Program-made: the position numbers and the translations under genes
Assembly: GCA_034411815.1 (NCBI GenBank)
Contig: DAOUMH010000006.1
Location: 1 to 49,049 of the forward strand
From: Dehalococcoidales bacterium
GTDB taxonomy: Bacteria > Chloroflexota > Dehalococcoidia > Dehalococcoidales > DAOWJC01
Direction of reading: 5' to 3'
DNA length: 49,049 bases
Part shown: positions 3,919 to 24,859 of the stretch, in pieces
Layout of the letters: each line of letters opens with the position of its first letter
Numbering within the stretch: position 1 is the first letter of the stretch
The notes under the pieces: generated by a model
Told to the model about the DNA's origin: nothing
What the model saw: only the letters and a program-made list of their open reading frames with translations
Databases searched by the model: none

Positions 3919-5157
3919 ATGATTTCTATAATTATCCTGCTGATTGTATTTGTACTAATTGCTATTCGCCAGGTTGGCAATATCAAGCTCCAGATATGGC
4001 AGATAGTGCTGCTCGGTGCTCTGGGTGTTCTCTTATCAGGGCAGATATCCCCAAGTGCAGCCTTGAAATCAATAAATGTCGATGTAATGCTCTTCCTGTT
4101 AGGTGTTTTTATTATCGGGCAGGCTCTCGAAGATAGCGGTTATCTCTCACACCTTTCGTACAGGCTCTTCCGCAGGGCGAAGTCTGTTGACAGCCTTGTT
4201 CTTTTTATCCTGCTTGGAATGGGTATGCTATCGGCGCTTCTCATGAATGACACGCTAGCTATTATTGGCACCCCCGTCGTCTTGTCGCTGGCAAGGAAGG
4301 CCAACACCCAACCAAAAATACTAATGCTTTCTCTTGCTTTTGCAGTAACGATAGGCAGCGTTATGAGCCCGATAGGCAATCCTCAGAATTTGCTGATAGC
4401 CATCCACGGAAATGTAACCAACCCATTTGTCACCTTCCTGAGATACCTACTACTACCCACCCTGCTGAACCTGTTTCTGGCCTACCTACTGCTGCGACTA
4501 TTCTACAAGAAACAGTTTCACAACAAGCCACTAACTCACTCCCAAGAGGCTATCACAGATCCTAAACTGGCAATCCTTTCTAAGACCTCTCTAATTCTGC
4601 TAGCCACTTTAGTATTGGTAAAGATAGTAACGGTGTTTGCGAATCCAGGGATTGATTTCAAGCTGACCTATATTGCCCTCACCGCCGCACTACCCATAAT
4701 CGTCTTCATTCCTAAGAGACCTAGCATGCTTAAGAGAATTGACTGGTATACTCTGGTTTTCTTTGCCTCAATGTTCGTGCTGATGCAGAGTGTTTGGGAC
4801 TCCGGAGTTTTTGAAATGGCGATAGAGGCTGCCCGTTTAAATCTTGCCTCGACAGGAGTTATTTTTACTACGAGCGTTCTTCTTAGTCAACTCCTTTCAA
4901 ATGTGCCACTCGTAGCCCTTTATTTACCCATCCTAGTCCAGCTAGGCGTTTCGCCAAAAGGGATGATGGCACTCGCAGCAGGTAGCACCATAGCCGGTAA
5001 TCTTACCATACTTGGTGCGGCGAGTAATGTAATAATCATACAGAATGCGGAAAAAAGAAGCGGTGCCACCCTTACCTTTTGGGAATTTGCTCGGATCGGC
5101 GTACCGTTAACAGTGGTAAATGTAATAGTCTACTGGTTGTTCCTCAGAATATTCTAA
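3919..5157 (+). CDS. ArsB/NhaD (CitMHS/SLC13-like) superfamily anion permease
   Basis: This is a 412-aa polytopic membrane protein with duplicated halves. It carries motifs such as NDTLAIIGTPVV and SPIGNPQNLLI that are typical of this permease superfamily. Confidence 0.75.
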   Translation: MISIIILLIVFVLIAIRQVGNIKLQIWQIVLLGALGVLLSGQISPSAALKSINVDVMLFLLGVFIIGQALEDSGYLSHLSYRLFRRAKSVDSLVLFILLGMGMLSALLMNDTLAIIGTPVVLSLARKANTQPKILMLSLAFAVTIGSVMSPIGNPQNLLIAIHGNVTNPFVTFLRYLLLPTLLNLFLAYLLLRLFYKKQFHNKPLTHSQEAITDPKLAILSKTSLILLATLVLVKIVTVFANPGIDFKLTYIALTAALPIIVFIPKRPSMLKRIDWYTLVFFASMFVLMQSVWDSGVFEMAIEAARLNLASTGVIFTTSVLLSQLLSNVPLVALYLPILVQLGVSPKGMMALAAGSTIAGNLTILGAASNVIIIQNAEKRSGATLTFWEFARIGVPLTVVNVIVYWLFLRIF

Positions 5158-5226: not shown

Positions 5227-5745
5227 TCACGCCTTAGCCTTATCCTTCATTCTACTGGCACTATGCCTATTAAAGCTCTTCTGTAAAATAAGTTTATCAT
5301 CATTCGGTGCATAAAAGTCCGGAATGCGGCAGATTAATTCGTAACCGTGATTGACGTGAAAAAGCAGTGTTTTCTCATATGCTGGTGTCGAGGACGTCTC
5401 AATAATAGCCAGCCTTCCCTTAGCCGTCCTGATCTCCTTTTCAGCCGCTTCCATCAGGGCGCTACCAATGCCCTGTTTCCGCCTTTCCCGGGCGACGGCC
5501 ATCCAGTATATGTCCCAGGTACCACTGGTGAGAGGAGTCGGCCCGTAGCTGATATAGCCATCAACACCCGCGTCATCCTCGGATACCAGTGTAAAATACC
5601 CTGAATCAACTGGGTCTTTCAGGTAGCTGTCAATAACTTCCTCGGCAATCACCACTTCAAATGGCTTGAACTCGGGCGTAGCCTGCAGGATTCGCATGAG
5701 GGCCGGTTTGTCTTTCCTCAACATGGGGCGTACCTTTGTGGTCAT
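5227..5745 (-). CDS. GNAT family N-acetyltransferase
   Basis: ATG at 5745 follows GGAGAAGGG. The acetyl-CoA motif is RRKQGIGSALME. The start lies 89 nt inside the upstream ATP-grasp ORF. Confidence 0.8.
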   Translation of the reverse strand: MTTKVRPMLRKDKPALMRILQATPEFKPFEVVIAEEVIDSYLKDPVDSGYFTLVSEDDAGVDGYISYGPTPLTSGTWDIYWMAVARERRKQGIGSALMEAAEKEIRTAKGRLAIIETSSTPAYEKTLLFHVNHGYELICRIPDFYAPNDDKLILQKSFNRHSASRMKDKAKA

Positions 5746-6742
5746 AGCATCCCTTCTCCAACGCAGTTTGCACAATCTTCTTAATAAATTCTGTGTAGGT
5801 CATGTTGGCAGCTTTAGCTTGGCGAATAGTGCCAGCATCAGGGGATATATCTGGGTTAGGATTTACCTCTATAACATTCAGTCGTCCTGCTTTGTCCATC
5901 CGCATATCCACCCTGGCATAACCCTGGCAACCTAGGTGATAGAAGATTCCCAAGGTCATACTCTCAATGCGCTTTTGATATTCAGACCCGATTTCGGCAG
6001 GACAAATTACCCTTGTACCCTCAAAATACGGGCTGTCTGGCTGCCATTTGGCAGCAAAGGTCAGAATTTGGGGCATTCCCTCAGGCAGTGAATAGCTGAT
6101 TTCGGATACAGGCAACATGGTGTACCTTGTGTTCCCCATTATAGTAACATTAAACTCACGCCCCCCTATGAACTCCTCGACCAGTGCTTGTCCGCCATAA
6201 GTGCCACTTATCTGTCCTACCTTCTCCTTCAGCGAGGTAAAATCGCTGACCACACTACCCTCTGAAAGCCCGTGACTAGCATCCTCGCTACACGGTTTGA
6301 CAATGCATGGATATGCGAGTCGGAACTGCGGCACTGTCTCCGGGTTCAATAACTGGAAATCAGGAGTGGGAACACCAGCTGCTCTTAAAATCACTTTAGT
6401 CTTAGCTTTATCCAATGCAAGTCTTAGCGCCGCACTAGTACAGCCAGTAAAAGGTATCCCCATATCCGATAAAATGTCAGGGACTATGGCTTCCGTCTCA
6501 GGGTACCCTGGGAAACCCTCGAAGAGATTAAAAACCAAGTCCGCCTTCAGCCCATTGAGTTTTTCTCTGATCTGGATTGGTGGTGATAGGGGAATCCGAA
6601 TAACGTCGTAACCCAGTTCAAGCAGGGAACAGTATATGGCAGCTACAGCTTCCATAACACCCAAAACTGCCTTTTCTTCATCGGTAGCGTCGTAGCGTGA
6701 GGGAACTGGTTCGTTGTAGACAATGACTACACGCTCACACAC
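5657..6742 (-). CDS. D-alanine--D-alanine ligase family ATP-grasp enzyme (copy 2)
   Basis: The likely GTG start at 6742 follows GGAGAGG. The ORF-track start at 6928 lies inside the upstream gene. Ddl-like layout: N-terminal Rossmann-like region, then PCIVKPCSEDASHGL, then ARVDMRMD..NVIEVNPNP. Confidence 0.8.
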   Translation of the reverse strand: MCERVVIVYNEPVPSRYDATDEEKAVLGVMEAVAAIYCSLLELGYDVIRIPLSPPIQIREKLNGLKADLVFNLFEGFPGYPETEAIVPDILSDMGIPFTGCTSAALRLALDKAKTKVILRAAGVPTPDFQLLNPETVPQFRLAYPCIVKPCSEDASHGLSEGSVVSDFTSLKEKVGQISGTYGGQALVEEFIGGREFNVTIMGNTRYTMLPVSEISYSLPEGMPQILTFAAKWQPDSPYFEGTRVICPAEIGSEYQKRIESMTLGIFYHLGCQGYARVDMRMDKAGRLNVIEVNPNPDISPDAGTIRQAKAANMTYTEFIKKIVQTALEKGCYDHKGTPHVEERQTGPHANPAGYARVQAI

Positions 6743-7731
6743 TGCGGGTACCTCTCCAATGCAGCATCCAGCACAGCAACGATAAGTTCTGTGTGAGTCC
6801 AGCCCAACTTTAAGGCCATAATCACTAAGTCGCTGTATGTTCCCAGTCCAGGCAGGGGGTTCATCTCGATGAAGTAGGGCATTCCCTCCGGGCTGACCCG
6901 GAAGTCCAAACGGGCGAAGTCCCGGCACCCTAGAACCTTATAGACTCTGAGGCTGGCATCTGCTAACATATCCAGCACATCTTGTCCAAGGTCGGCAGGG
7001 CACCGATAATCAACCAAGCTAAGGTAATCACGTTTTACTTCGAGTGAATATATAAAGCACTCCTCTTTCTTTTTAGGCACTACACGCATCATACCTACTA
7101 CTTTGGGTGGGGTGTTACCAATAACACCCACAGTTACCTCGTCACCAGCGATAAACTTCTCAATCATTACCGGCTGGCGATAGTACCCCAATATTTTACC
7201 CGCCTCTTGCCGTGCCTGTTGCACGCTGTATATTAGAGAAGAGAGCCGAATGCCCTTACTTGAGCCTTCATACGCAGGTTTTATAATAGCCGGAAAGGGG
7301 AATCCATCCCAAGATGTTCGCTCCAATTCTTCCTTGCTCGCTATTACCAGCCACTGCGGAGTGATGATACTATCTGCCGCCACCAACTTCTTAGTGGTAG
7401 CCTTATCCAGACAGACTGCCAGACAAAGAGGGTCAGAACCGGTATAGGGTATGTCTAACATCTCCAAGATAGAAGGAACCTGGGCTTCTCGGCTGCGGCA
7501 ATTGCCTCTGCCCTCAGCGATGTTGAAGACGATATCAACCTTGTTTTGCCGGACATTGTCCAGAAATTGCATACCACCACCGAGCTTGATGACCGAGTGT
7601 CCTTTTGCCTCCAGAGCCAATGCTATAATCTCCACTGTCTCCAAGGAATCGTATTCCTCAAGGGCATCCTCTGGACTATTTTGCTGCAACGGCATTCCCT
7701 CTCTAAGATCGTACGATAACCCTATCCGCAT
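6727..7731 (-). CDS. D-alanine--D-alanine ligase family ATP-grasp enzyme (copy 1)
   Basis: ATG at 7731 follows GGAAGGAG. Motifs are PAIIKPAYEGSSKGI and ARLDFRV..YFIEMNPLPGL. It is a paralog of copy 2. Confidence 0.85.
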   Translation of the reverse strand: MRIGLSYDLREGMPLQQNSPEDALEEYDSLETVEIIALALEAKGHSVIKLGGGMQFLDNVRQNKVDIVFNIAEGRGNCRSREAQVPSILEMLDIPYTGSDPLCLAVCLDKATTKKLVAADSIITPQWLVIASKEELERTSWDGFPFPAIIKPAYEGSSKGIRLSSLIYSVQQARQEAGKILGYYRQPVMIEKFIAGDEVTVGVIGNTPPKVVGMMRVVPKKKEECFIYSLEVKRDYLSLVDYRCPADLGQDVLDMLADASLRVYKVLGCRDFARLDFRVSPEGMPYFIEMNPLPGLGTYSDLVIMALKLGWTHTELIVAVLDAALERYPQCVSV

Positions 7732-9097
7732 CTGTGGCTCCTTCCATTTCCAACTTCAGTCCTGTCTCAGCAAGCAGACTGTCCATGTCCCCGATAACCG
7801 GGGTTTCTACCCTAACTTTTCCTCGGATGGTCTGGGGATTGGGATTGCGATAGCGGTAGACATTGCCTTCGTAGTTCCTAAGCAGTAGCTCATCCTCCGT
7901 CTGAGATAGAACGTAGTTTGGCTGCAGCGGCACCTTGCCACCGCCATGAATCAGGTCTATTACAAAGGTGGGTACAGCCAGCCCTGACGTATGTCCACGC
8001 ATCCCTTCGATTATTTTCATGCCGGTCTCCACCGGCGTACGCAGGTGCTCAGTCCCCTGCACCTCATCACACTGGAATAGATAATAAGGACGCACCTTTA
8101 TCCTGAGCAGATCTTGGCAAAGTTTCAGCATTGCCCCAACAGTATCATTAATACCACGCAACAGAACTGTTTGGTTGTTTACGGGAATGCCGCTACGCAA
8201 CAATCGGTCGCACGCCCCAGCTGATTCCGGAGTTATCTCACGATGGTGATTAAAATGGGTGTTGAGCCATATGGGTCCATATTTCGATAACATATCACAT
8301 AGCTCATTATCAATACGCTGCGGCAGTACTACAGGAAACCTGGTGCCGATACGTATAATTTCAATATGTCTTATGGCTCTTATCCTAGAAAGAATATTGC
8401 CCAAGCGGCGGGTGGAGAGTGTCAGTGGGTCACCACCAGATATAATGACATCTCTAACAACTTCATTCCGGCGTAAATACTCCAGCATAGCTTCTATCTC
8501 ACTGTCAGTGCGCACCCAGCCTCCATGTCTCCATTCTCGCTTGCGGGTACAGTGGCGGCAAAGCATCGGACATATGTTGGTAAGCACCATCAGGACCCTA
8601 TCAGGGTAGCGATGAACCAGACCGGGAACCACGGAGTCCCTTTCCTCCGCCAGCGGGTCCTCTAGCCCCATTGACCCCATGGTAACTTCCAGAACAGAAG
8701 GAACAGCCTGTTTCCTTATCGGGTCATCAGGATCATCAGGGTTAATAAGCGAAAGATAATAGGGGGTTACCGATAAGGGATAGCGACTTGTAACTAGGCT
8801 AAGCTGTGACTGCTCCTCGCTTGATAAAGGAATAAATTCTCTTAGTCGGTTGACAGTTGTTATTCTATGGCGAAAGTGCCACTTCCAATCATTCCATATG
8901 CTGTCTGGAATACATCCTAAACATCTATGTCTACTATAAGCAGCAGATTTACCAGGGGGATCTTCCTCAAGCTTTACAATAACGCTAGACCCACCAGGAG
9001 GTTCCTCTCTGTCTTCCCTTCTAACCTGGCTTGCAGAGGAGCACTCCTCCAGTACGCTTACAGGTTTACTATTAGTAGCCACCGATGTTGTTTTCAC
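7703..9097 (-). CDS. KamA-family radical SAM/PLP amino acid 2,3-aminomutase (lysine 2,3-aminomutase-like)
   Basis: Contains CPMLCRHCTRKR (CxxxCxxC), the GGDPL motif, the FQCDEVQGTEH motif, and the PLP lysine in HGGGK. Starts with GTG at 9097. There is an N-terminal low-complexity extension of about 65 aa. Confidence 0.88.
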   Translation of the reverse strand: MKTTSVATNSKPVSVLEECSSASQVRREDREEPPGGSSVIVKLEEDPPGKSAAYSRHRCLGCIPDSIWNDWKWHFRHRITTVNRLREFIPLSSEEQSQLSLVTSRYPLSVTPYYLSLINPDDPDDPIRKQAVPSVLEVTMGSMGLEDPLAEERDSVVPGLVHRYPDRVLMVLTNICPMLCRHCTRKREWRHGGWVRTDSEIEAMLEYLRRNEVVRDVIISGGDPLTLSTRRLGNILSRIRAIRHIEIIRIGTRFPVVLPQRIDNELCDMLSKYGPIWLNTHFNHHREITPESAGACDRLLRSGIPVNNQTVLLRGINDTVGAMLKLCQDLLRIKVRPYYLFQCDEVQGTEHLRTPVETGMKIIEGMRGHTSGLAVPTFVIDLIHGGGKVPLQPNYVLSQTEDELLLRNYEGNVYRYRNPNPQTIRGKVRVETPVIGDMDSLLAETGLKLEMEGATDADRVIVRS

Positions 9098-9212
9098 CTT
9101 ATTACTTTTCCCGCTCCTTCCTTATAATTAAATAATTAATATTAAGCTACGTTACGTTAAAACATTCTAAGCTTGTACTTGTAATAACCAATTATTCCTG
9201 TTATAATATCAC

Positions 9213-9226
9213 GGAATTATAATTCC
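9213..9226. promoter_or_regulatory. Perfect 14-bp palindrome GGAATTATAATTCC in the kamA / wHTH divergent intergenic region; candidate operator
   Basis: Read directly from the sequence. It lies just downstream of an extended -10 element, TGtTATAAT (9199-9207), that faces the wHTH gene. Confidence 0.4.
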
Positions 9227-9321
9227 TAAATGCACATTATATATCACATACCCCAACTGTCAATAGGTCTTAAACAAAAAATAAAATATTTTTGAGGAAA
9301 ATTTCATAAGGAGTTATCAGT

Positions 9322-9621
9322 ATGGGAGGCTGGAAATTTCTGACCAATCATGCCCTAGTTTTATGTTTAATCGCCCAGCAGCCACGAATTACTGCCCGAG
9401 ATATTTCTTTAACGATAGGTATCACGGAAAAGGCAACGCGTAATATTATCAATGCTCTTGAAGATGATGGCTACGTCACCAAGAAAAAGGAGGGACGGCG
9501 CATCAGATACAGGGTTAATCCTGACTTGCCAATGCGTCATGAAATGCAACAGGATAAGGCTATAGGTGACCTTCTAGAGATTCTTGGTTGGAAGCCTAGA
9601 AAAAGGGGAAAGTCGACCTAA
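9322..9621 (+). CDS. Small winged-helix (MarR/ArsR-like) transcriptional regulator
   Basis: A 99-aa protein with an HTH-like segment ITARDISLTIGITEKATRNIINALEDDGYV followed by a wing (KKKEGRRIRYRV). RBS is AAGGAG. It is transcribed divergently from the kamA operon. Confidence 0.65.
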   Translation: MGGWKFLTNHALVLCLIAQQPRITARDISLTIGITEKATRNIINALEDDGYVTKKKEGRRIRYRVNPDLPMRHEMQQDKAIGDLLEILGWKPRKRGKST

Positions 9622-9755: not shown

Positions 9756-10394
9756 TCACCGTAGAAAATACATAGCTGGCTCGGTTCCTAGTTCTTCCAA
9801 CAGACGGAATGATGCTCTCGATCTTACCAGCTTTGAAACTTCACTGTCGGGATCGTTGAGATCCCCAAAGTGTCTGGCACGAGCCGGGCAACATTCTACA
9901 CACGCCGGTTCCAGCCCTTTATCCACCCTATGAAAACAAAGGGTGCACTTCTCAACCACACCCCGTTGGTGAGACTCTGCATCAGAGCTGCCGACAGGGA
10001 AAGGAGGTGCTTGCTGGGGGACGTCCTTACTAAAAACGCGCGCCCCATAGGGACAGGCCACCATACAGTATCTGCAACCGATACATTTATCCCAGTCTAT
10101 AAGCACCACCCCATCCTCGCGCTTATAGCTGGCACCGGTCGGACACACTTTCACACACGGGGGCTCTTCACAATGCTGACAACAATGCTGGCAAGATACA
10201 GGTATAAACTCCATTGAGAGGTGAGGATAGGTTCCCTTAGGCGTCTCCTTCCCCAAACCGCCATGGGTCAGCATTCTAAGCCAGCCCAGCCCCAAGGGTA
10301 CATTATTCTCCAATTTACAGGCAACAACGCAGGTGTTACAGCCTATGCACCTTTTCAGGTCTACTACGATTCCGTATCTCTTTGTATTTAACAT
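9756..10394 (-). CDS. 4Fe-4S ferredoxin-type electron-transfer subunit of a molybdopterin oxidoreductase (DmsB/PsrB/NrfC-like)
   Basis: Contains four Cys clusters (CIGCNTCVVAC, CQHCEEPPC, CIGCRYCMVAC, CTLC..). Its start codon abuts the stop of the catalytic subunit. Confidence 0.9.
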   Translation of the reverse strand: MLNTKRYGIVVDLKRCIGCNTCVVACKLENNVPLGLGWLRMLTHGGLGKETPKGTYPHLSMEFIPVSCQHCCQHCEEPPCVKVCPTGASYKREDGVVLIDWDKCIGCRYCMVACPYGARVFSKDVPQQAPPFPVGSSDAESHQRGVVEKCTLCFHRVDKGLEPACVECCPARARHFGDLNDPDSEVSKLVRSRASFRLLEELGTEPAMYFLR

Positions 10395-12623
10395 CTATAA
10401 TACCTTCCCTACCTGAACCCTTACATCATGGACGTTGAAGTTATCTAAAAGAGGATTCACCTTTCCATGGGTAAGCTCTTGATGATGACCATTCTTGTAG
10501 TGTCTTGGCCACCACCCCTGCTGAATATTGACCACGCCAGGTCTTAACGCCTCTGTAAGCTTCGCTTGCAGTACAAGCCTACCCCTGTCGTTAAAAACCT
10601 CCACTACATCACCTTCTTTAATATCCCTGGCTTGAGCATCAACCGGATTTATCTCGCATGTTGGCTCAGGATTGAGCTCCTGAATCCAAGGCATATTTGC
10701 AAACTGGGAATGGATTCGCCAACGACCATGCTGACTGTTCAGGATTAAGGGATAGGTTGCAGCCAGAGGATTATCCGGCCCGGCTTCCAAAGGCCACCTG
10801 TGGCGAGGTAACTCCCTACCAAACTGAGCCCATTTTTCAACGTAGAATTCCGCCCTGCCGGAAGACGTAGGGAACTTTTGGTAGGCTATATAGGGTTTGG
10901 GAAACAGTCGCGCCCCTCCAACCTCCTTCAGCCCTTCAAAAGTCACCCCTCGCTCCCTGTAGCGAGGGGCATCAAGAAACTGCTGAATTTGGTCTGCAGC
11001 AGTCCCCGCAAAGTATTGACCGAAACCTAAACGCTGGGCCAGCTCCTGCCAGATCTCAAAATCGGGCTTGCTCTCACCCATTGGCTCAATAACCTTACCT
11101 CTATAAAGAAGGTAAGGCATAGAGGCACTCATCACTACATCCTCCTCCTCAAACCAATGGGCAGCAGGAAGCACAATATCAGCATACTCCACAGTATTAG
11201 TCTGCATTAAGTCGGCTACCACAAACAACTCGATTTCAGGTAGCATCTGCTCTATCCACTTCCTACGGTTCGGTAATTGATTAAGCATATTGCTGCAAGT
11301 AACATATAGCGCCTTTAAATGATAAGGCTCTTTGCTGTCCGTGTCATATAGACGGGCTATACTGGTTTGTGTCGGCCGGTTACCGGTTGGGTACCGCCAA
11401 ACGGTATTCATTGGAACCGCACAGGAATACCCCTGCTGAATGGTTCCGGACTTACCCACATTCCCAGTGAGAGCAAGCAAGGTAGCCAGCGCTTGACCTA
11501 ATACAATACCTTCATAGTACCGATCAGGGCCGAATCCGGGCAGAATGCCCCCCGGCTTTATTGTAGCCAGATCAACAGCAAGCTTATGTATGGTCTCTGC
11601 AGGGATTTCGGTCAGTTGCTCGGCCGCCTGAAGGGGATACTCCCCTGCCACATCAGTGATAAGCTTGAAAGCAGTATCACACTCCATCCCCCCAACGCTA
11701 TGGGTACCAGTAAGCTCGGGGCAAACACCCGGCTCATCGTGGAAACGAGCACAATCAGTCACGGTATCCCATACTACATACCTCTCATCGGAGCTGTCCC
11801 CAGAAATATCCTTCCCACGGAGGAACATCTTGGTATCCCGCCTCACCAGAAATGGAGCAACAGTCTTATTGATTACAAACTCCTTATCAATCAGCTCCTC
11901 TTGAATAACCACATTAATCATCGCCAAGGCCAAGGCAATATCGCTGCAAGGTCTTAGGGGTACCCATGTGTCCGCCTTAGCGGCAATGGTAGTGAAGCGA
12001 GGATCAATTACGACTAGTTTCGCCCCTTTCTCCATCGCATCGAATATGAAGCGGATATCCTGAACCTTGGTCTCTCCAATACTTCCCCCCCATACAATGA
12101 TCATCCTCGCATTGACATAATCCAATGGCTCATTACCAACATTGGCCCAGAAATGTCTTCCACCAAAAACGGACAAATAACCTGAGGGGACAGCCATATC
12201 GAACGGCTGGAACACGCTAACGCTGCCAAACAGCCCGCTAAATTTGTCTGCGATGGGCACGCCGTTCAGGACCCCGTAGTTCCCACTACCAGCAAAGATG
12301 CCAACATGCTGGGAGCCGAATTTCTCCTTAATCTCCTGGAACCGCCCGGCTATGGTGTCCAACGCCTCATCCCAAGTGATACGCTGCCACTTCCCTTCAC
12401 CACGTTGTCCCGCTCTCTTCATCGGGTACTGCAATCTGAAAGGGGAATATACCGACTGTACATGAGTCAGCCCCTTCATACAAACTCTATTACTATACTC
12501 CGGGTCCGGCAGAGGTGCCGGTGCTACCTTAACCAACTTACCATCACGTACTGTCGCTAAGAGAGAGCATGTTTGGAAACAATTTGGCGAACACGCCGTT
12601 CTAACCACCTTCTCTTCAGCCAT
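10395..12623 (-). CDS. Molybdopterin (bis-MGD) oxidoreductase catalytic subunit, DMSO reductase superfamily, no Tat signal
   Basis: A 742-aa protein. The N-terminus MAEEKVVRTACSPNCFQTCS goes straight into the FS0-type Cys motif with no RR leader. Confidence 0.88.
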   Translation of the reverse strand: MAEEKVVRTACSPNCFQTCSLLATVRDGKLVKVAPAPLPDPEYSNRVCMKGLTHVQSVYSPFRLQYPMKRAGQRGEGKWQRITWDEALDTIAGRFQEIKEKFGSQHVGIFAGSGNYGVLNGVPIADKFSGLFGSVSVFQPFDMAVPSGYLSVFGGRHFWANVGNEPLDYVNARMIIVWGGSIGETKVQDIRFIFDAMEKGAKLVVIDPRFTTIAAKADTWVPLRPCSDIALALAMINVVIQEELIDKEFVINKTVAPFLVRRDTKMFLRGKDISGDSSDERYVVWDTVTDCARFHDEPGVCPELTGTHSVGGMECDTAFKLITDVAGEYPLQAAEQLTEIPAETIHKLAVDLATIKPGGILPGFGPDRYYEGIVLGQALATLLALTGNVGKSGTIQQGYSCAVPMNTVWRYPTGNRPTQTSIARLYDTDSKEPYHLKALYVTCSNMLNQLPNRRKWIEQMLPEIELFVVADLMQTNTVEYADIVLPAAHWFEEEDVVMSASMPYLLYRGKVIEPMGESKPDFEIWQELAQRLGFGQYFAGTAADQIQQFLDAPRYRERGVTFEGLKEVGGARLFPKPYIAYQKFPTSSGRAEFYVEKWAQFGRELPRHRWPLEAGPDNPLAATYPLILNSQHGRWRIHSQFANMPWIQELNPEPTCEINPVDAQARDIKEGDVVEVFNDRGRLVLQAKLTEALRPGVVNIQQGWWPRHYKNGHHQELTHGKVNPLLDNFNVHDVRVQVGKVL

Positions 12624-12681
12624 GTAATACTATCCCCCTCACTCGGAATCCTTCTTCGTCACTCAAAATTATCAAAGCACA

Positions 12682-13623
12682 CTATAAATAACTATCTACC
12701 AGCGACTCTCCCGGTAGCGGTTTTCGCAGTCCGGCAACTAAGAAGGTATAACGCAGGAAAAATGTCCCTACCAACACCAAAAAAGCTGAGACAAAAGACA
12801 TCACCTGGCCAAAGCTCGTAAGGGAAAAGATGAGTGGTAAGGCTAACCCAAACCCTATCAAGCCAAGCCAGAAGGCAAGACTGAGCTTACCCGCCACCAG
12901 CAGGCGGACTGACTCCGTCATCAACGGGACTGAACTATGCATAATCGCCAGATAGAAACCGATCATCACCAACTCAATCACCAGCAGGTATACCTCGATT
13001 TGTCTAATAAGCCCTGCCTGAGCAGGTCCTACATCAACCCCAAAAAGCCCTCCGATAAGAGTAGTCGCCGCAATACCTGCCGAAAGTGAGGAGATAACCC
13101 AAAGAATCGGTAGTAAAGGCGTGTTCCAAAATGGCCTAGCTTTTACCACACCCATGAGGAGCCCGGTATAAGCAGCCGTGGCAAAAGCGAAAATTACCCC
13201 CAGCACCCCCACCACATGACTAGCCATGGAAACCCCATACCAAGGGGAAAAACTCACGTTAAAAGAAATATAGGCTGCTCCCAGTAGTAAAAATAGTGTC
13301 AGGATTACAACACCAACAGATATCATTGAGGTTGTATTAGAGACCAATCGCCAGGCTCGCCAGGGAACCCCGAGGTCAGCTAGTAGCAAGAGCGACCCCA
13401 GCCCGACACTCAATAAACCAACCCAAGCCCCCACATTGGACAATTCGGCATATTGCCCTTTGCTAACAAGATTCAGAAAGACAGGCAATCCGAATGATCC
13501 GGCACCAATCCCACCCAAGAAAAGGTACAAAGCAATCTTAAGCCCCCAAGCCGGCTCTTTTTTCTCTAAGGCAGGTCTTACCCCGTTAAGGTCTGCTCTA
13601 TTCCTATGTCCTATATTTACCAT
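12682..13623 (-). CDS. NrfD/PsrC/DmsC-type polytopic membrane anchor subunit
   Basis: A 313-aa protein with about 8 TM segments. Its N-terminal motif WGLKIALYLFLGGIGAGS is typical of the NrfD family. Confidence 0.82.
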   Translation of the reverse strand: MVNIGHRNRADLNGVRPALEKKEPAWGLKIALYLFLGGIGAGSFGLPVFLNLVSKGQYAELSNVGAWVGLLSVGLGSLLLLADLGVPWRAWRLVSNTTSMISVGVVILTLFLLLGAAYISFNVSFSPWYGVSMASHVVGVLGVIFAFATAAYTGLLMGVVKARPFWNTPLLPILWVISSLSAGIAATTLIGGLFGVDVGPAQAGLIRQIEVYLLVIELVMIGFYLAIMHSSVPLMTESVRLLVAGKLSLAFWLGLIGFGLALPLIFSLTSFGQVMSFVSAFLVLVGTFFLRYTFLVAGLRKPLPGESLVDSYL

Positions 13624-13626
13624 GTC

Positions 13627-14124
13627 TCACAACCTAAGCAGAGAAACGGTTTCGGCTCCAGGCTCTGGAACCTCCTGTTCCACATACCTCAAAAATGCTC
13701 TTACCAGCTCACTGCGAACCACCACCAGATTATTCAGTGACGACTTCCAAGCCAAGGACACTGCTGGCATAAGCCCTCGGCCAAATAACTCTAAGTATCC
13801 CACTTCATCAATGACCACAAACTCACACGCCTTCCCCACCGCCCTTTCAATAGCATCAATGCCAAATGCTATACCCTCCCAGCTAATAACATAAGCACCA
13901 ACTCGCTCCCCATCAAGACAACCGTCACCCGCCAAGCGTGCAAAAGGCATTTCTTCACATGTTAGAAGATCAACTACATCATAACCTATCCGCCTGGTAT
14001 CCAAGCGCACCTCCGGTGAGAGGATGCCGCCAACACTACAACCACATTCTCTTAAATAACTAATATATTCACTACACCAAGTTGTCTTGCCCGAGCCTGG
14101 TCCCCCCGCAACCAGAACATTCAT
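13627..14124 (-). CDS. P-loop NTPase, THEP1/DUF2478-like
   Basis: Walker A is GGPGSGKTT. Walker B is FVVIDEVGYLELFG, which compares with the THEP1-type IIDEIGKMELF. 165 aa. Confidence 0.65.
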   Translation of the reverse strand: MNVLVAGGPGSGKTTWCSEYISYLRECGCSVGGILSPEVRLDTRRIGYDVVDLLTCEEMPFARLAGDGCLDGERVGAYVISWEGIAFGIDAIERAVGKACEFVVIDEVGYLELFGRGLMPAVSLAWKSSLNNLVVVRSELVRAFLRYVEQEVPEPGAETVSLLRL

Positions 14125-14838
14125 TCAGAAGCCCCCTGCATAAGTGACTCCCGCAATAGCCCAACATAAGACCACAACAGCCGCAGCACCTACATAATAG
14201 AGTTTAGGCTGTCTGTTCCTAAGCTCTGAAAACCTAGGCCGGAGCCGGCTACCCACCACGTACCCTGCGAGAACTAACAGCGTTCCTACTACAGCCACAC
14301 CTGTGCCATCAACTAAAGCTTGATAGACCCTTTCCTGAAACCCTATCCCAGCCCAATTCCCCATACCCGCTATAGACGCCACGATGGCGTAAAGTATTAT
14401 GCTTAGATATCCAGCCATAACTCCTGCCATAACACGAGCTCTGACACTATACCGGAAACTTCTAAACAGGGGGACAGCTATAAGGCCGAAAGCCACTGCC
14501 TCCAGCATAATCGCCGTAGCCGGGTTAACCACGAACTGAGAAAAAATAGAAGCCTTAAGGATAATGGCATCTAACAGTTTGAAAAGAGCCGCAACCAAGC
14601 CAACTCCCACCAATAGAGTTGCCCGCCCACCAACAGCCACAAATGTTGTCATTATTGACAAGCCAATGCCACCCATAATAGCTCCCTTATAAGGGAAATG
14701 GACGAAGTGCAGAAAGCCACCCAGAGTTGCTTCTAAAAAACCCCAAATCGAGCCAAAAATGACCACAAAAATGATCATATCAACCAGAGTATTTCCCTTT
14801 CTCTCCGACTCCCCGAACCTATAAAACATAAAGCACAA
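14125..14838 (-). CDS. Polytopic membrane protein of unknown function (about 6 TM)
   Basis: The protein is hydrophobic throughout. A more likely start is the internal Met at 14778 (MIIFVVIFGSIWGFLEATLGG). No family was recognised. Its stop abuts the start of the NTPase gene. Confidence 0.55.
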   Translation of the reverse strand: MCFMFYRFGESERKGNTLVDMIIFVVIFGSIWGFLEATLGGFLHFVHFPYKGAIMGGIGLSIMTTFVAVGGRATLLVGVGLVAALFKLLDAIILKASIFSQFVVNPATAIMLEAVAFGLIAVPLFRSFRYSVRARVMAGVMAGYLSIILYAIVASIAGMGNWAGIGFQERVYQALVDGTGVAVVGTLLVLAGYVVGSRLRPRFSELRNRQPKLYYVGAAAVVVLCWAIAGVTYAGGF

Positions 14839-14983
14839 ACCTCCTGCAGTTGTGTTTACTAATCAATAATTTAATTTACAGCACACCCCTTGACAGGCCC
14901 TCCCCTCACCAGAACCACAAGTTCAAATAAGCAACCCCGCTATCCTGAGCTAAATAGCCCCCCAGGTAATTATCTACCGAGCT

Positions 14984-17206
14984 TCACACCTTGCTTATTT
15001 TGCACTGGACGGCTCGCATTGTAACACCACCCTGGAAATCACAAGTCTCAGGCTCATCAGGAAAGAGCTGCCCCACGCCTGACTCCCACACCCCGAATAG
15101 GTATGGGTCCTCCCCGGACCTTTCCGGGAACCACCAGCCATGCTCTGCATGAACTACCTTCGGGTGAATCCCGTCAGTCAGCTCAGCCCTCTGCTTTATC
15201 TTCCCCTTGGGCGTCTCTATGTAAACCCAATCACCACTACTAATGCCATGTTCCTTTGCCGTATCAGGATGCAGCTGCATAATAGGGTCTGGATGGCGCT
15301 CCCGCAGCCTCGGCTGCTCCCTAAGACACGAGTGGTTGAATGTCCTGACTCGACCTCCAGCAATCAATATCAGGGGATAATCCTCCGGGCTGCCGGTAAC
15401 CCCGGGGATTTGAGGAAGGTCGCTATAGTGAGGTAATAGCTTATATCCAAGCTCCTTTAATATACTTGGCAGTAACTCAACCTTTCCTGACAGGGTTGCG
15501 AAACCGCTCTCCTCATACTGCTTATATTTACGAGGTGGGCGCAGGCTCCTCTGATCCCCAACCCACCTGACCGTCCTGACAGTTTCCTGGAAGCTAAGAC
15601 CTGTCGGTTCTAAATACTTGCTGTAGAAAGCTTCAAGGGTCTCAGGCCAATATGCTTCCTGTCCCAGGCGTATCCCCAAGCCTCGGCACAGGTCATAATC
15701 ATTCCTCCGCTCATACTTTGGCTTGACTGCCTGCTCACCAATCGACCTGTAGTACCCTTCAGGATCCATGTAGGGCTTCTCAAACATGTCAGTGATTGGA
15801 AACACATAGTCAGAAAGCATCGCACTAGGGGTCAGGTAGTGGTCAGCAGTAATGTGCAGCGCCAGCTTGTCGCTCTTCAATGCTTGGTAGACCCTCTTAT
15901 AGTTAGTTCGAGTAACCAAGACATTCATACCGAAATTCAACAGTGCTTTCACCGGGTAAGGCTCCTCGTTAATGATAGCATCCCATAGAGGACGGGGGCT
16001 AACATTGGGGTACAATGCCATTGGTTTACTATAGCCATTCTCACCATATACCTTATGCAAAGCCTTATGAAATAGCTTCAACGCCCTTAAGGACATGATT
16101 GGAAATATATCAGCATCAACCTTATCCCTAGTTCTCAGGGGGTGCTCAAATATCTTGTCAAAGTGCATATTCTGGTCATGGGCATAGTTTAAAGGTGAAA
16201 CCAGCACGTCACCACCCTTAACATCCAGATTGCCAGTAATGGCGCGCATGATACATTTAGCCAAATTTACCGATAGGGTTCGCCCCCTTCCCAACTGAGA
16301 ATGGGTCACCCCCCAACAGGTGGCCATACTCGCAGGAGCGCTGGTAGCGTAAATCCTAGCAACCTCGGCAATCTTCTCCGCCGGCACCCAGGTAATATCC
16401 TCTACCACCCGAGGTGGATAAGCCTTGATGAATTCCCTGACCTCATCAAAGCCCAGACACCACTTATCCACAAACTCCTTATCATAGAGCCCCTCTTCAA
16501 TGATCACATTTAACATCCCGTAGGCCAGAGCACCGTCGGTCCCCGGTTTTAGCTGCAACCATATATCTGCTTGCTCCGCTGTTTTGGTTCTTCTAGGGTC
16601 AATAACTATAATCTTTGCCCCCCCCCTCTTAAGCTCTAAAAAGTGGCTCCACGCTGAGGGAAAGGCAGCGAACGGATTTGCCCCGAAAACCACGGCACAC
16701 TTCGTTACACCGGGTCGCCCCATTTCAGGAACTGTGTCACCACCATAGACGGCAACCTCTGTTACAATCTGAGGTTGGTAACAATTCTTGGTTGAATCAA
16801 AAATGTTTGGTGTGCCAAAGAGGTTAGCCCACCGGACCATCGCATCACACTGCCGCGTACCACCGATACCGACCAACATAGCCGCCGCCTCCGGCCCATA
16901 ATCACTCCTTATATCTGCCAGCTTCCCCGCCACCTCGTCCAGGGCCTGTTCCCAAGATACCCTCTGCCACTTACCCTCTCCCCTTGCTCCAGCCCTCTTT
17001 AATGGATAGTTGAGACGGTTTGGGTGGTCATGGTAATCCAGAGATGCCAGGACATTCTTCTCGCAGCGAAACCCTGGTCCCGGACTGCGGAAGTTCTTGT
17101 CAGATTCTACCTTGACTACCTCCCCATCCTTGACCTGCACCTGGATGCCACACACTGACACGCAAAACATACAAACTGACCTCTTGAGTTCAACATCGTC
17201 TGACAC
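14984..17206 (-). CDS. Second molybdopterin oxidoreductase catalytic subunit (paralog of 10395-12623), no Tat signal
   Basis: GTG at 17206 follows GTGAGGT. The N-terminus is MSDDVELKRSVCMFCVSVCG. Shared blocks with the paralog include YPLKRAGARGEGKWQRVSWEQALD versus YPMKRAGQRGEGKWQRITWDEALD. Confidence 0.88.
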   Translation of the reverse strand: MSDDVELKRSVCMFCVSVCGIQVQVKDGEVVKVESDKNFRSPGPGFRCEKNVLASLDYHDHPNRLNYPLKRAGARGEGKWQRVSWEQALDEVAGKLADIRSDYGPEAAAMLVGIGGTRQCDAMVRWANLFGTPNIFDSTKNCYQPQIVTEVAVYGGDTVPEMGRPGVTKCAVVFGANPFAAFPSAWSHFLELKRGGAKIIVIDPRRTKTAEQADIWLQLKPGTDGALAYGMLNVIIEEGLYDKEFVDKWCLGFDEVREFIKAYPPRVVEDITWVPAEKIAEVARIYATSAPASMATCWGVTHSQLGRGRTLSVNLAKCIMRAITGNLDVKGGDVLVSPLNYAHDQNMHFDKIFEHPLRTRDKVDADIFPIMSLRALKLFHKALHKVYGENGYSKPMALYPNVSPRPLWDAIINEEPYPVKALLNFGMNVLVTRTNYKRVYQALKSDKLALHITADHYLTPSAMLSDYVFPITDMFEKPYMDPEGYYRSIGEQAVKPKYERRNDYDLCRGLGIRLGQEAYWPETLEAFYSKYLEPTGLSFQETVRTVRWVGDQRSLRPPRKYKQYEESGFATLSGKVELLPSILKELGYKLLPHYSDLPQIPGVTGSPEDYPLILIAGGRVRTFNHSCLREQPRLRERHPDPIMQLHPDTAKEHGISSGDWVYIETPKGKIKQRAELTDGIHPKVVHAEHGWWFPERSGEDPYLFGVWESGVGQLFPDEPETCDFQGGVTMRAVQCKISKV

Positions 17207-17383: not shown

Positions 17384-17412
17384 CTGGGAGGTGATTAGAT
17401 GCTACCTCCCAG
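17384..17412 (+). other. 9-bp-stem hairpin CTGGGAGGT-(11 nt)-ACCTCCCAG at the left side of the AT-rich islet
   Basis: Read directly from the sequence. Its function is unknown. Confidence 0.5.
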
Positions 17413-17518
17413 TGTATTTGATATAATTGATGTATTCCCACGACTCCCATTATATCAGCTATATGATACAATAAATCAAGAAGACATCTATAGGCATGGA
17501 GTGGAGGATAAAATAGAT

Positions 17519-18268
17519 ATGAGTATCATTATGGGGCTTATTGGTAACGATGGAATAGTATTGGCTACTGATAGTCGTACCACATGGCAAAAAGCAGATG
17601 GATTCACCTATCATAATGATAACTCTCATAAGCTATATCAATTGACTAGTAATATAGGACTAATGACTTGTGGCTATAATAGTGGTTTTCAGCATTTTTT
17701 AGTTGACTATTTTTGCGGAGTATATATGCGAGACATGAAATCTAACATTGCGAAGTTTAAGAGTGATAAAACGTTGGCTGATGATTTTGAACTGAGTTAC
17801 TTGGAGGTAGTCAATAGTTTTGCTAAAGCAATGCGGGAGGAAATTAAGCCATTTGTAGAAAGCTATAACATCTTGAAGAGGGCTGGCGGTATGGACTTTG
17901 TGTTAGCAGGATATGATAAAAATGCTGCTAAAATGTTCTCTGTAGATGTCATGGACTTAGCTACTCCATTCGCACCAAGAGAGTGCGAGAGGTATTATAT
18001 CAGTGGCGTAAATGAAGTCGGTGTGTATTGGACACGTAAATTAAACATGAATGACTTAGACCTACCGATTGAGTTTCTAAAAAGGTTTGCTGTAATGGTC
18101 ATATTAGAAACTATTAAAACAGATGATATGGTTGGCGAACCTATACAGTTGGCAGTTGTGGATAAGAAAGGCTACCATGATATTACTAGTGAGGTTGATA
18201 GCATCAAGCCTAATTTAGATTCAGAACACAAATGGCTGTTTGATTACATGAAACAATGGGAGAAATGA
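17519..18268 (+). CDS. Proteasome beta-subunit/HslV-like Ntn-hydrolase fold protein, predicted Ser1 nucleophile
   Basis: ATG at 17519 follows GGAGG; the ORF-track start at 17399 is less likely. MSIIMGLIGNDGIVLATDSRTT aligns with HslV [21 protein letters not shown], placing Ser2 on Thr1 and Asp18 on Asp17. SHKLYQL..GLMTCGYNSG resembles the Lys33 and aG.aaD blocks. The gene is AT-rich. Confidence 0.55.
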   Translation: MSIIMGLIGNDGIVLATDSRTTWQKADGFTYHNDNSHKLYQLTSNIGLMTCGYNSGFQHFLVDYFCGVYMRDMKSNIAKFKSDKTLADDFELSYLEVVNSFAKAMREEIKPFVESYNILKRAGGMDFVLAGYDKNAAKMFSVDVMDLATPFAPRECERYYISGVNEVGVYWTRKLNMNDLDLPIEFLKRFAVMVILETIKTDDMVGEPIQLAVVDKKGYHDITSEVDSIKPNLDSEHKWLFDYMKQWEK

Positions 18269-18269
18269 A

Positions 18270-18458
18270 ATGTCTAAATCAAAGCCACAAAAACCATTAA
18301 CCAAGAAGCGTTTTGAGGGATTACTCAGGAGAGCGGCACGGCCTGTTTCTGAGTGGAAACACCAACAAGAAGAGACAGAAACATCGGAGTCTCATCCTTC
18401 CGATGGTTGTAACGATACACATAAGAATCAAGATAAGACTGAAGGTAAAGAGGACTAA
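18270..18458 (+). pseudogene. Short ORF translationally coupled to the Ntn hydrolase; only about the first 17-20 codons look native, the rest is antisense of the IS transposase
   Basis: The junction reads TGAaATG and the RBS is GGGAG. The ORF starts MSKSKPQKPLTKKRFEGLL, then runs into the 3' end of the transposase gene (transposase stop at 18325-18327). Confidence 0.3.
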
Positions 18459-19270
18459 CCGAGTGATTAACACCATCAATACCACGCTTGATATTGCTCC
18501 AGAGAGACTCAACAGTGTTGACATGAGCAATACCAGAGACATATTGCTTGGCGGAATGCTGTACAAATTGGTGGGCGTATCCAAGCCTTTCAATTTGGCT
18601 GTAGCTACGAAGCTCATCGGTAAAGACGATGGTCTTATCTTCTCTGGCAACCCTTTCCGCAATCATCGGAAGCAAGGTTCTGGCTTTGACATTGGGAATT
18701 ACCTTTGCGATGGCATTTCCGTTGCGTTCTACCATTCCCATGACAACCGTTTTGCCCTCTGCACCACGACCACGCTTCCCTGTTCTTTTCCCGCCAATGT
18801 AAGTTTCGTCAACTTCAACCTGTCCGATAAGCGGGTTGACATCTTCAGCCATGAGCTTGCGGATTTGCCCGAACATACGCCAAGCCGTCTTGTAGGTGAC
18901 ACCCAATTCCCTTTGAAGTTGCTTGGCGGAAATGCCTGTTTTGGTGGAAGCCATCAGGAATATAGCGTGAAACCAGGAGCGAAGCGGAGTATCGGACTTG
19001 TGAAAGATAGTGCCAGCAGTAGGCGACACGTGAGAACCGCAGAACTTGCAGGAATAGACCTTGCGATTAGCGATTCTGTAGTGGGTAGTAACCTTCTGGC
19101 ACTTCTGGCAGTAAACGCCCTTTGGATAGCGAGCCTTGAAAAGAAACTCAAGGCAGGTATCGTCATTCGGAAACTGTTTTTCAAAATCCTTGATACTGTA
19201 GGTCTTCATGGCAACTCTCCTAATCTCATTTTATACCTACAGTATAGCATAAAACCTCCGTGTTGTCAAG
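18290..19270 (-). mobile_element. IS1595-family insertion sequence (boundaries approximate)
   Basis: Contains the transposase CDS 18325-19209. I could not identify the terminal inverted repeats or the target duplication by eye. Confidence 0.5.
18325..19209 (-). CDS. IS1595-family (ISXO2-like DDE) transposase with N-terminal zinc ribbon
   Basis: The N-terminal zinc ribbon is CQKCQ..CKFCG. An HTH-like segment follows (ISAKQLQRELGVTYKTAWRM), then VEVDETYIGG and TDELRSY, typical of ISXO2-like/IS1595 transposases. Confidence 0.88.
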   Translation of the reverse strand: MKTYSIKDFEKQFPNDDTCLEFLFKARYPKGVYCQKCQKVTTHYRIANRKVYSCKFCGSHVSPTAGTIFHKSDTPLRSWFHAIFLMASTKTGISAKQLQRELGVTYKTAWRMFGQIRKLMAEDVNPLIGQVEVDETYIGGKRTGKRGRGAEGKTVVMGMVERNGNAIAKVIPNVKARTLLPMIAERVAREDKTIVFTDELRSYSQIERLGYAHQFVQHSAKQYVSGIAHVNTVESLWSNIKRGIDGVNHSVSPLYLQSYLDSYVYRYNHRKDETPMFLSLLVGVSTQKQAVPLS

Positions 19271-19283
19271 GGATAATTGCCTA

Positions 19284-19314
19284 AAAGTATGATATAATAT
19301 ACTAATCATACTTT
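19284..19314. promoter_or_regulatory. 10-bp inverted repeat AAAGTATGAT-(11 nt)-ATCATACTTT upstream of abrB; candidate operator overlapping an AT-rich -10-like loop
   Basis: Read directly from the sequence. It ends 16 nt before the abrB ATG. Confidence 0.35.
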
Positions 19315-23815: not shown

Positions 23816-24859
23816 ATGCGCGAGGCGATGCTCTACGAAAAGCTCCCGAACTCCAGGGTGCAATGCAACACCTGCCAGTGGCGCTGCACCATAGAGCCCG
23901 ATAAGCTTGGTGTTTGCCGAATGTACCAGAACAAAAATGGCACCCTGTACAACCTGAACTACGCTCAGGCATCATCAATAAACGCCGACCCTATCGAAAA
24001 GAAGCCCCTGTTCCACTTCTTCCCGAACAGTCTGGCTTTCTCCCTAGGCACCTGGGGCTGCAACTTTCACTGCCAGCACTGCCAGAACTGGGAAATTTCT
24101 TCTGCTGAGACCGGGGAGCCATGGCGCAACTCTCAGGAGATTCAACCCCAAGCGGCAATAGACCTTGCCAAACACCACCACTGCGAGGGCATCGCCTGGA
24201 CATACAACGAGCCCGGTATCTGGTTTGAATATACCCTCGACTCAGCCAAGCTGGCCAAGGAGAATAACCTGTATACTGTCTATGTGACCAATGGCTACCT
24301 GACCCCCGAGGCACTGGATACCATTGGACCCTACCTGGATGCCTGGCGTGTCGATATTAAGGGTTTCTCCGACTCCTTCTACCAAAGGCTGGCAAGGGTC
24401 AGCCGCTGGCGAGGAATACTTGAGGTCACCAAGCAGGCCCAAGATAAGTGGAACATGCATATCGAGGTTATTACCAATATCATACCCACCATGAATGATG
24501 ATGACCAGCAACTTGAAGGCATTGCTAACTGGATACGAGCCGAGCTTGGTGAGCTAACCCCGTGGCATGTAACCAGATTCTACCCCAACCACCATATGAT
24601 GCATTTGCCCCCGACCCCTATATCCACCCTTGAGCATGCCTATGACATCGGGAGAAAAGCCGGTCTCAGGTTTATCTATGCCGGTAATGTCCCCGGCCAC
24701 CAGAGCGAAAACACCATCTGCTACTCCTGCGGTAAGCCCATCGTAGAGAGGTTTGGCTATCAAACCAAGGTCGTGGGTCTGGATGGGTCAAGGTGCAAGT
24801 TCTGCGGGGCAGAGCTTAACTTCAGGACACCCGAGACAAAAGGGGGGAGTCATGGTTAG
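23816..24859 (+). CDS. amrS: AmmeMemoRadiSam system radical SAM enzyme
   Basis: Has an N-terminal Cys cluster (CNTCQWRC..C) and the radical SAM motif [11 protein letters not shown]. The genomic context with MEMO1/AMMECR1 supports the call. Confidence 0.82.

Follow-up and report, generated by a model that had tools for sequence, protein, structure and literature searches.

We analyzed a 49,049-nt stretch of DNA from a Dehalococcoidales bacterium (GenBank assembly GCA_034411815.1, contig DAOUMH010000006.1; hereafter the window), focusing on four minus-strand genes that run from 9097 to 5227, each overlapping the next with zero intergenic space. In order, they encode a 464-aa KamA-family radical S-adenosylmethionine (SAM)/pyridoxal 5′-phosphate (PLP) aminomutase (7703–9097), predicted to be a lysine 2,3-aminomutase (EC 5.4.3.2) making β-lysine and hereafter called KamA; an ATP-grasp ligase with the Ddl fold, which we call AG1 (334 aa, 6727–7731); its paralog AG2, also an ATP-grasp ligase (361 aa, 5657–6742); and a GNAT N-acetyltransferase (172 aa, 5227–5745), hereafter GNAT. 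The ligases were assigned with Pfam, NCBIfam, and hhalign, and GNAT by its matches to PF13508 and PF00583. An original prediction, made from the sequence of the window, had proposed that these overlapping genes serve to make a β-lysine peptide or conjugate. All four open reading frames (ORFs) were confirmed, and the analyses below identify them as a real, conserved, and functionally coherent four-gene operon.

KamA starts with a GTG at 9097. Because an in-frame TAA lies upstream at 9124–9122 and no in-frame ATG, GTG, or TTG occurs between this GTG and the conserved core, the N-terminal extension of the protein (minus strand, 8945–9097) is real. The extension had been described as ~65 aa of low-complexity sequence; its existence stands, but it reaches ~51 aa past the start of the lysine 2,3-aminomutase (LAM) of Clostridium subterminale and is not featureless, as it carries EEPPG at aa 31–35 and EEDPPG at aa 44–49. 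Both copies are conserved across the Dehalococcoidia, and one EPP[G/S/D] copy is found in orthologs from Desulfovibrio, Woeseia, and other lineages. The extension may serve as a site at which the ligases dock.

The ATG of AG1 is preceded by GGAAGGAG, and AG1 shares its first 29 nt with the end of KamA. The GTG start of AG2 at 6742 lies 8 nt 3′ of GGAGAGG, with 16 nt shared between AG2 and the end of AG1; the longest AG2 ORF extends to 6928, and homologs begin at the position equivalent to 6742. The ATG of GNAT at 5745 is preceded by GGAGAAGGG and overlaps the tail of AG2 by 89 nt, while an ATG at 5750 hits a stop after two codons. The last ~30 codons of AG2 (5657–5745) lie outside the Ddl-homologous domain and overlap the GNAT start in another frame. 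About half of the Dehalococcoidia loci have a similar AG2/GNAT overlap of 76–89 nt; in the others, AG2 ends before or at the GNAT start.

The alignment of KamA with C. subterminale LAM (PDB 2A5H) is gapless across 365 residues (E 1.6e-133). The four motifs singled out in the original prediction (CPMLCRHC, HGGGK, FQCDE, and FVIDL) are present and fall on LAM C125/C129/C132, K337, D293, and D330, respectively. In the LAM structure, D293 and D330 bind the ε-ammonium of lysine, R134 binds the substrate carboxylate, and K337 is the PLP-binding lysine. Every substrate or cofactor residue of lysine 2,3-aminomutase that we checked is kept in the KamA alignment. Across 78 cluster-linked KamA proteins, some of them at 43–51% identity, C125/C129/C132, R134, D293, D330, and K337 do not vary, and the earlier argument for a basic substrate from the two aspartates thus holds throughout this set. 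Glutamate 2,3-aminomutase reportedly has Lys/Asn at these two positions; with Asp/Asp, KamA does not carry the glutamate-type signature. The cysteines of the LAM structural Zn site (C268, C375, C377, and C380) are absent from the cluster-linked proteins, which have T, S, N, or D at position 268 and no C-terminal CxCxxC. We considered HRCLGC as a substitute Zn site and rejected it, as it is not conserved.

When scored against curated profile hidden Markov models (HMMs), KamA passed the NCBIfam KamA-family model (328.2 bits, cut-off 199.2). The AblA-type LAM model TIGR03820 was the best-scoring equivalog (488.7 bits, cut-off 525.4), ahead of the models for glutamate 2,3-aminomutase (TIGR04368; 439.7 bits, cut-off 650), arginine 2,3-aminomutase (411.7 bits, cut-off 600), and EpmB (TIGR03821; 231.7 bits, cut-off 369.3). 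The Desulfovibrio and Syntrophales versions of the protein gave the same ranking, with the AblA-type model first. An EpmB identity, for which a profile-HMM check had been proposed, was rejected on the basis of this score and of the lack of efp or epmA among the annotated neighbors in the window and related loci. As judged from residues and model scores, the protein has a lysine-type pocket and falls into a KamA subfamily of its own, and β-lysine is its most likely product.

Both ligases match PF07478 (AG1 at 1.3e-33, AG2 at 2.9e-27), and hhalign aligned them to Escherichia coli DdlB with 99.8% probability. A Foldseek search with the AG1 model returned Ddl structures only. AG1 and AG2 are 28.5% identical to each other, and on the Ddl subfamily HMM they scored 175.2 and 151.8 bits, both below the cut-off of 243. 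We compared them residue by residue with DdlB, whose reference sequence was checked against 2DLN/1IOV. K97, K144, E180, E187, K215, R255, D257, E270, and N272 are kept in both ligases; the placement of K215 in AG1 follows HMMER and hhalign (the K of EVKRD), as MAFFT set K215 opposite a Glu, two residues off.

The substrate pocket is changed in both proteins. In AG1, H63E and L282D are invariant (91/91 sequences) and Y216 is replaced by R, E, or A, with S150 (as S or T) and S281 retained. In AG2, the invariant changes are H63E and Y216W (86/86 sequences), accompanied by S150A in 83/86, L282G in 85/86, and D or C in place of G276; position 281 is S, T, or A, and is A in the window protein. In these alignments, the two pockets differ from each other, each is deeply conserved, and both have gained acidic residues. 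Retention of all D-Ala-D-Ala substrate residues by both ligases, which would have counted against the original prediction, is contradicted by this pattern of changed D-Ala pocket residues and kept catalytic ones, and we predict that AG1 and AG2 are two active amide-forming enzymes, neither built for D-Ala-D-Ala. No mur genes were found within the window, in agreement with the earlier remark that cell-wall genes are not adjacent. The Dehalococcoidia are a class generally reported to be without peptidoglycan.

GNAT matches PDB 2R7H, a 'putative D-alanine N-acetyltransferase' of Desulfovibrio G20 (E 1.7e-27), and the 2R7H protein is itself encoded by the fourth gene of the same cluster in two of the loci described below (L085 and L086). 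We regard GNAT as the ortholog of this structural orphan on the basis of match and position. The AblB GNAT model (TIGR03827) gave no match to it, and NCBIfam returned only weak RimI and PRK03624 matches at E<=1e-3; nor does GNAT directly follow KamA, as the two ligase genes intervene. Many non-Chloroflexi clusters also encode an accessory protein of ~580 aa, whose C-terminal domain is closest to acetylpolyamine amidohydrolases (9gkz, E 4e-66) and whose N-terminal domain is weakly GNAT-like.

The closest homologs of KamA and AG1 come from Dehalococcoidales and other Chloroflexota metagenome-assembled genomes, at 70–79% identity. Scanning one genome per GTDB species with an AG1 alignment, we found a relative in >578 genomes and examined the best 80 loci. 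The order KamA-AG1-AG2-GNAT was found by tblastn in 79/80 of these loci, wherever the contig leaves room. The exception is a Syntrophales locus on a 1.8-Mb contig (L009), in which AG1-AG2-GNAT at 63–67% identity are followed by a different KamA (42% identity, with both aspartates kept) that has no N-terminal extension, so the ligase-GNAT block has recruited an aminomutase more than once. An IS200/RayT-like transposase ORF, assigned by eye, lies directly upstream of AG1 in this locus (7237–7908). Together with the swapped KamA, it suggests that the ligase-GNAT block was acquired by horizontal transfer.

Homologs of 2R7H belong to clusters of the same four genes in G20-like contigs, in D. mangrovi and Woeseia, in a gammaproteobacterium, and in four further lineages. 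These distant clusters have 46–50% (KamA), 33–40% (AG1), 29–34% (AG2), and 31–38% (GNAT) identity to the window, and the AG1-type ligase is always the first of the pair. A metagenome scan with distant AG1 sequences gave >580 further matches, and the AG1-then-AG2 order also holds in the 80 loci taken from it. Co-occurrence of the four genes, which had been suggested as a check, therefore extends to hundreds of species in several phyla. In a published paper, Dde_3047 is given as a Ser/Thr phosphatase. As this matches the SpoIIE gene three genes past GNAT in L085, we infer that the G20 cluster comprises Dde_3040 (sigma-54 activator), Dde_3041 (KamA), Dde_3042 (AG1), Dde_3043 (AG2), and Dde_3044 (GNAT).

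We also surveyed the best 150 of 853 AG1-related 50%-identity cluster representatives (E<1e-30) for single-chain fusions. This set contained 17 AG1-AG2 fusions (in operon order), one AG2-AG1 fusion, two KamA-AG1 fusions, and one AG1-KamA fusion, and P0080 is an additional KamA-AG1 fusion. That fusions arose independently and in both orders strongly indicates that the aminomutase and both ligases act in one pathway, and the gene arrangement as a whole is far beyond chance. Separately, 19 representative proteins of 580–720 aa (P0362–P0374 and others) are tandem ligases with both halves nearer AG1 than AG2; these AG1/AG1-like proteins may form a separate double ATP-grasp family.

Clustering of neighboring genes, which covered 59 loci of at least 6 kb, returned only KamA, the two ligases, and GNAT as the core. 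The accessories that recurred were the sigma-54 activator in 12 loci, the ~580-aa deacetylase-like protein in 8, and a small membrane protein in 7. In one clade, the cluster is followed downstream by a gene for a LysA-like decarboxylase, which scored 297.4 bits (cut-off 297.9). No amidotransferase, racemase, non-ribosomal peptide synthetase (NRPS), carrier protein, or precursor peptide recurs in the neighborhoods of these 59 loci, and neither does any other biosynthetic enzyme. Neighbor families c4 and c10 were discarded as antisense ORF artefacts in high-GC loci, and the Fpg, PhoU-like, and Pit neighbors as synteny inside one clade with no functional link. A lysine fermentation cluster was rejected, as kamDE, kdd, kce, and kal are not found near the cluster. 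The siderophore clue offered by ExbBD-TonB genes and a TonB-dependent receptor was likewise rejected, as these occur at L087 and L090 only and are absent elsewhere.

A CitMHS/ArsB-NhaD-type permease gene (PF03600 at 1.7e-56) lies on the plus strand at 3919–5157, convergent with the operon. In ~10 Dehalococcoidia loci, a 66–75%-identical permease is encoded just downstream of GNAT in the same direction as the operon, and the cluster in L089 has genes for a CitMHS-TrkA_C permease and two amino-acid permeases on its flanks. These occurrences hint weakly that the CitMHS permease is possibly associated with the operon.

On the other side of the operon, a 99-aa winged-helix-turn-helix (wHTH) regulator of the MarR/ArsR-like type (HTH_24, MarR_2) is encoded divergently on the plus strand at 9322–9621. 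Most of the 80 Dehalococcoidia loci have a homolog with 70–87% identity in this divergent arrangement, and the regulator is the probable repressor of the operon. Between the two, on the minus strand at 9236–9263, lies a sigma-70 promoter that matches the consensus at 12/12 positions (TTGACA, 16 nt, TATAAT). Just 3′ of the −10 box, at 9194–9226, are operator-like repeats made up of a palindrome, GGAATTATAATTCC (9226–9213), and a related element, ATTATAACAGGAAT (9207–9194). In an alignment of 40 intergenic regions between the regulator and KamA, promoter and operator repeats are kept at the DNA level: ctaTTGACAa...TGTATAATt is retained across the 40 regions, and TATAACAGGA is found in 24/40.

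The 130-nt leader gave no match in Rfam. We rejected a riboswitch or attenuator in it on that ground and because variation in the repeats is without compensation, which argues for a DNA site and not an RNA structure. The repeats at 9194–9226 read as the binding site of the wHTH repressor. In the Dehalococcoidia, the consensus promoter would then be gated by wHTH protein bound to the operator repeats at the transcription start, making the operon inducible. In Desulfovibrio-type clusters, the sigma-54 activator would fill the regulator role in place of the wHTH protein, again with inducible expression.

Based on this information, we lean, if only somewhat, toward reading the locus as a self-contained, regulated four-enzyme operon that makes a small N-acetylated β-lysine peptide or pseudopeptide. 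KamA would use [4Fe-4S]/SAM radical chemistry and PLP to shift the α-amino group of L-lysine to C3, yielding β-lysine (3,6-diaminohexanoate), a step that is well supported by homology. AG1 and AG2 would then each form one amide bond via an acyl-phosphate intermediate, and their acidified pockets (E63 in both, D282 in AG1, D/C276 in AG2) would fit a diamino substrate. As the two pockets differ and each is conserved, two different bonds are most likely, for example, one involving the carboxyl group of β-lysine and the other an amino group of β-lysine. Since no further dedicated enzyme recurs, the partners for ligation would be common metabolites or amino acids, or a second β-lysine.

GNAT would acetylate a remaining free alkyl-amine, most simply the ε-amine, as AblB does. 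Where the acetylpolyamine amidohydrolase-like deacetylase is present, it could remove the acetyl group again, and its occurrence in many non-Chloroflexi versions suggests that the acetyl group is a transient protecting group or a turnover switch. The simplest guess for the product is a cytoplasmic solute made on induction, which would act as a compatible solute or as a polyamine-like cation. A broader proposal, which we regard as evenly balanced, is that the operon defines a new metabolite class with a β-lysine core, two extra amide bonds made by a pair of former Ddl ligases, and a reversible N-acetyl group, near-universal in Dehalococcoidales and shared with many sediment Desulfobacterota and Gammaproteobacteria.

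The proposed pathway resembles a cross of the AblA/AblB route and the ATP-grasp routes to peptide solutes, and it is a member of neither. N-ε-acetyl-β-lysine is a compatible solute of methanogens and some bacteria. In its AblA/AblB route, too, one operon encodes both a radical-SAM lysine 2,3-aminomutase and a GNAT, and AblA is the best equivalog for KamA, whose residues for binding the lysine side chain are identical to those of LAM. The operon described here differs in the two conserved ATP-grasp ligases between KamA and GNAT, in a KamA that falls below the AblA cut-off, carries the EEPPG extension, and lacks the Zn-site cysteines, and in a GNAT of the 2R7H family with no match to the AblB model.

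N-acetylglutaminylglutamine amide (NAGGN) is an osmolyte of Sinorhizobium and Pseudomonas made by Ngg and AsnO, where Ngg is a single GNAT/ATP-grasp fusion working with the amidotransferase AsnO. In this system, acetylation and ATP-grasp peptide bonds yield a small N-acetylated peptide solute with no ribosome or NRPS, much as we propose here. In our operon, however, there are two Ddl-type ligases, a separate GNAT, and a dedicated β-amino-acid enzyme, and no amidotransferase is among the recurrent neighbor families.

Among individual ligases, Ddl and VanA (EC 6.3.2.4) have their fold and their ATP, Mg, and acyl-phosphate machinery in common with AG1 and AG2, which differ from them in the replaced substrate-pocket residues, the missed family cut-offs, and the absence of a mur context in the window. 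The L-amino-acid ligases BacD/YwfE, BL00235, TabS, and MysD are likewise stand-alone ATP-grasp enzymes and form the dipeptide or pseudopeptide bonds of small molecules, and BL00235 (3VOT) is a weak match to AG2; AG1 and AG2 are nevertheless much nearer to Ddl and form a fixed pair with KamA and GNAT. In the EpmA/EpmB system, a KamA-family enzyme likewise feeds β-lysine to a later ligation. There the ligase is a paralog of lysyl-tRNA synthetase, whereas here ligation falls to ATP-grasp enzymes, no efp is nearby, and an inducible regulator is dedicated to the operon. The RimK/LysX systems differ in that no RimK-type domain and no recurrent small acidic carrier or other target gene of the S6/LysW type accompanies our cluster.

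Several observations weigh against the β-lysine peptide reading. The GGxSxExxVS loop of Ddl, which carries E15, could not be aligned in AG1 or AG2, and our reasoning on the pockets rests on sequence alignment, with a pLDDT of 62.8 for the AlphaFold model of AG1 (built with 16 close homologs). KamA is under the curated cut-off of every equivalog model, so that arginine, ornithine, or another basic amino acid is a possible substrate. Transporters (CitMHS, major facilitator superfamily (MFS), and amino-acid permeases) often adjoin the cluster, which would suit an exported product. Finally, the hosts are common in freshwater, groundwater, and sludge, which weakens a strictly osmotic role.

The first of the alternatives that these points raise is that KamA acts on another basic amino acid, such as ornithine, a D-amino acid, or arginine (the case of BlsG), giving a β-arginine or β-ornithine conjugate. 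The sub-threshold LAM score is consistent with this, as are the 411.7 bits still reached by the arginine 2,3-aminomutase model and the two aspartates, which would suit a guanidinium or a shorter amine. Yet the LAM-type model is the top match in all three cluster versions scored, the alignment to LAM is gapless with all lysine-contacting residues identical, and the LysA-like decarboxylase linked to the cluster in one clade is an enzyme that makes lysine; we therefore consider another substrate quite unlikely. We find it unlikely, too, that the same chemistry serves an exported product, such as an antibiotic-like cationic β-lysine peptide or a metal binder, with GNAT and the deacetylase providing self-protection and activation. 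Streptothricin carries β-lysine chains, and resistance to it works by β-amino acetylation of the β-lysine. Permeases adjoin many loci (CitMHS in the window and ~10 relatives, MFS in L083 and L087, and amino-acid permeases in L089), a TonB-dependent receptor lies near the L087 cluster, and L090 has an ExbBD-TonB set. However, no transporter family is kept across the range of the cluster and most loci are without a nearby transporter; TonB genes are abundant in the phyla concerned, and the Dehalococcoidia have no outer membrane. Nor does the cluster encode a hydroxylase or any other enzyme that would form a chelator. In its distribution it behaves like a near-core trait passed on vertically in small Dehalococcoidales genomes (>578 species matches, with the flanking regulator kept), whereas specialized antibiotic clusters tend to be patchier.

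A further hypothesis places the chemistry on a protein or peptide in the manner of RimK, LysX, or EpmA: the ligases would put β-lysine, or chains of it, on a carrier or ribosomal protein, for instance, or on elongation factor P (EF-P), with GNAT capping the added group. ATP-grasp enzymes are known to modify proteins, EpmA and EpmB attach β-lysine to EF-P, and the conserved acidic EEPPG extension of KamA could dock or accept. We hold this to be decidedly unlikely, since the neighborhoods of ~170 loci show no recurring gene for a target or carrier, Pfam lists only Ddl-type and generic ATP-grasp models with no RimK-type domain, and KamA is not EpmB. The KamA of L009 dispenses with the EEPPG extension while the rest of that cluster remains 63–67% identical, the accessory deacetylase is closest to enzymes acting on small molecules, and dedicated inducible regulators would be unusual for a housekeeping modification. 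The locus could, in addition, be seen as a plain AblA/AblB pathway for N-ε-acetyl-β-lysine beside two cell-wall D-Ala-D-Ala ligases, given that KamA plus GNAT corresponds to the AblAB enzyme pair and that automated annotation names the ligases D-alanine--D-alanine ligase. This view is effectively refuted: the ligases sit between KamA and GNAT, overlap both, and hold that position across phyla; they fuse to each other and to KamA; they are without the Ddl substrate residues and under the Ddl cut-offs; and GNAT has no AblB model match, with no mur genes found nearby in the window.

These considerations leave the N-acetylated β-lysine peptide or pseudopeptide as the reading we prefer. The searchable full-text literature, which omits most subscription journals, contained no description of the cluster that we could find, in keeping with the original expectation that it had not already been characterized. 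The interpretation given in the original prediction is supported, in that neither the sequence comparisons nor this literature yielded a finding that refutes it.

Beyond the operon and its regulator, the window contains several other regions of note. Two molybdopterin oxidoreductase catalytic subunits of 742 and 740 aa are encoded within 9756–17206, the first flanked by 4Fe-4S and NrfD-like membrane subunits, as in Psr/Phs-type complexes; these genes were assigned by reading the sequences. A low-GC stretch at 17–19 kb (~40–44% GC; 17399–19284) holds a 289-aa ORF with a weak proteasome-subunit match, followed by a 323-aa ORF without a Pfam match. At 23816–26159, a radical-SAM protein followed by a Memo-like/AMMECR1 fusion makes up an AmmeMemoRadiSam trio. 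A further low-GC stretch at 26–28 kb (~41% GC, compared to ~50% elsewhere in the window) encodes a 489-aa protein with DndB-like and GIY-YIG nuclease domains (26196–27665) and may be a small acquired defence island. The dnaA gene lies at the end of the window (47140–48495) and the cumulative GC skew has its minimum at ~47–48 kb, where the replication origin is probably located.

If the proposed pathway is correct, it would represent a new and widespread route for β-lysine beyond acetylation, EF-P lysylation, and NRPS antibiotics. It would explain the presence of two "D-Ala-D-Ala ligase" genes in the Dehalococcoidia despite their reported lack of peptidoglycan, and it would mean that the current D-Ala-D-Ala ligase annotation misleads metagenomic inference on cell walls and D-amino-acid metabolism. 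A function would be provided for the structural-genomics orphan 2R7H and for hundreds of genes labelled 'D-alanine--D-alanine ligase', with D. alaskensis G20 (cluster genes inferred to be Dde_3040–3044) as a genetically tractable host. The product itself could be a new compatible solute or polyamine-like molecule in the stress physiology of organohalide-respiring and sediment anaerobes.

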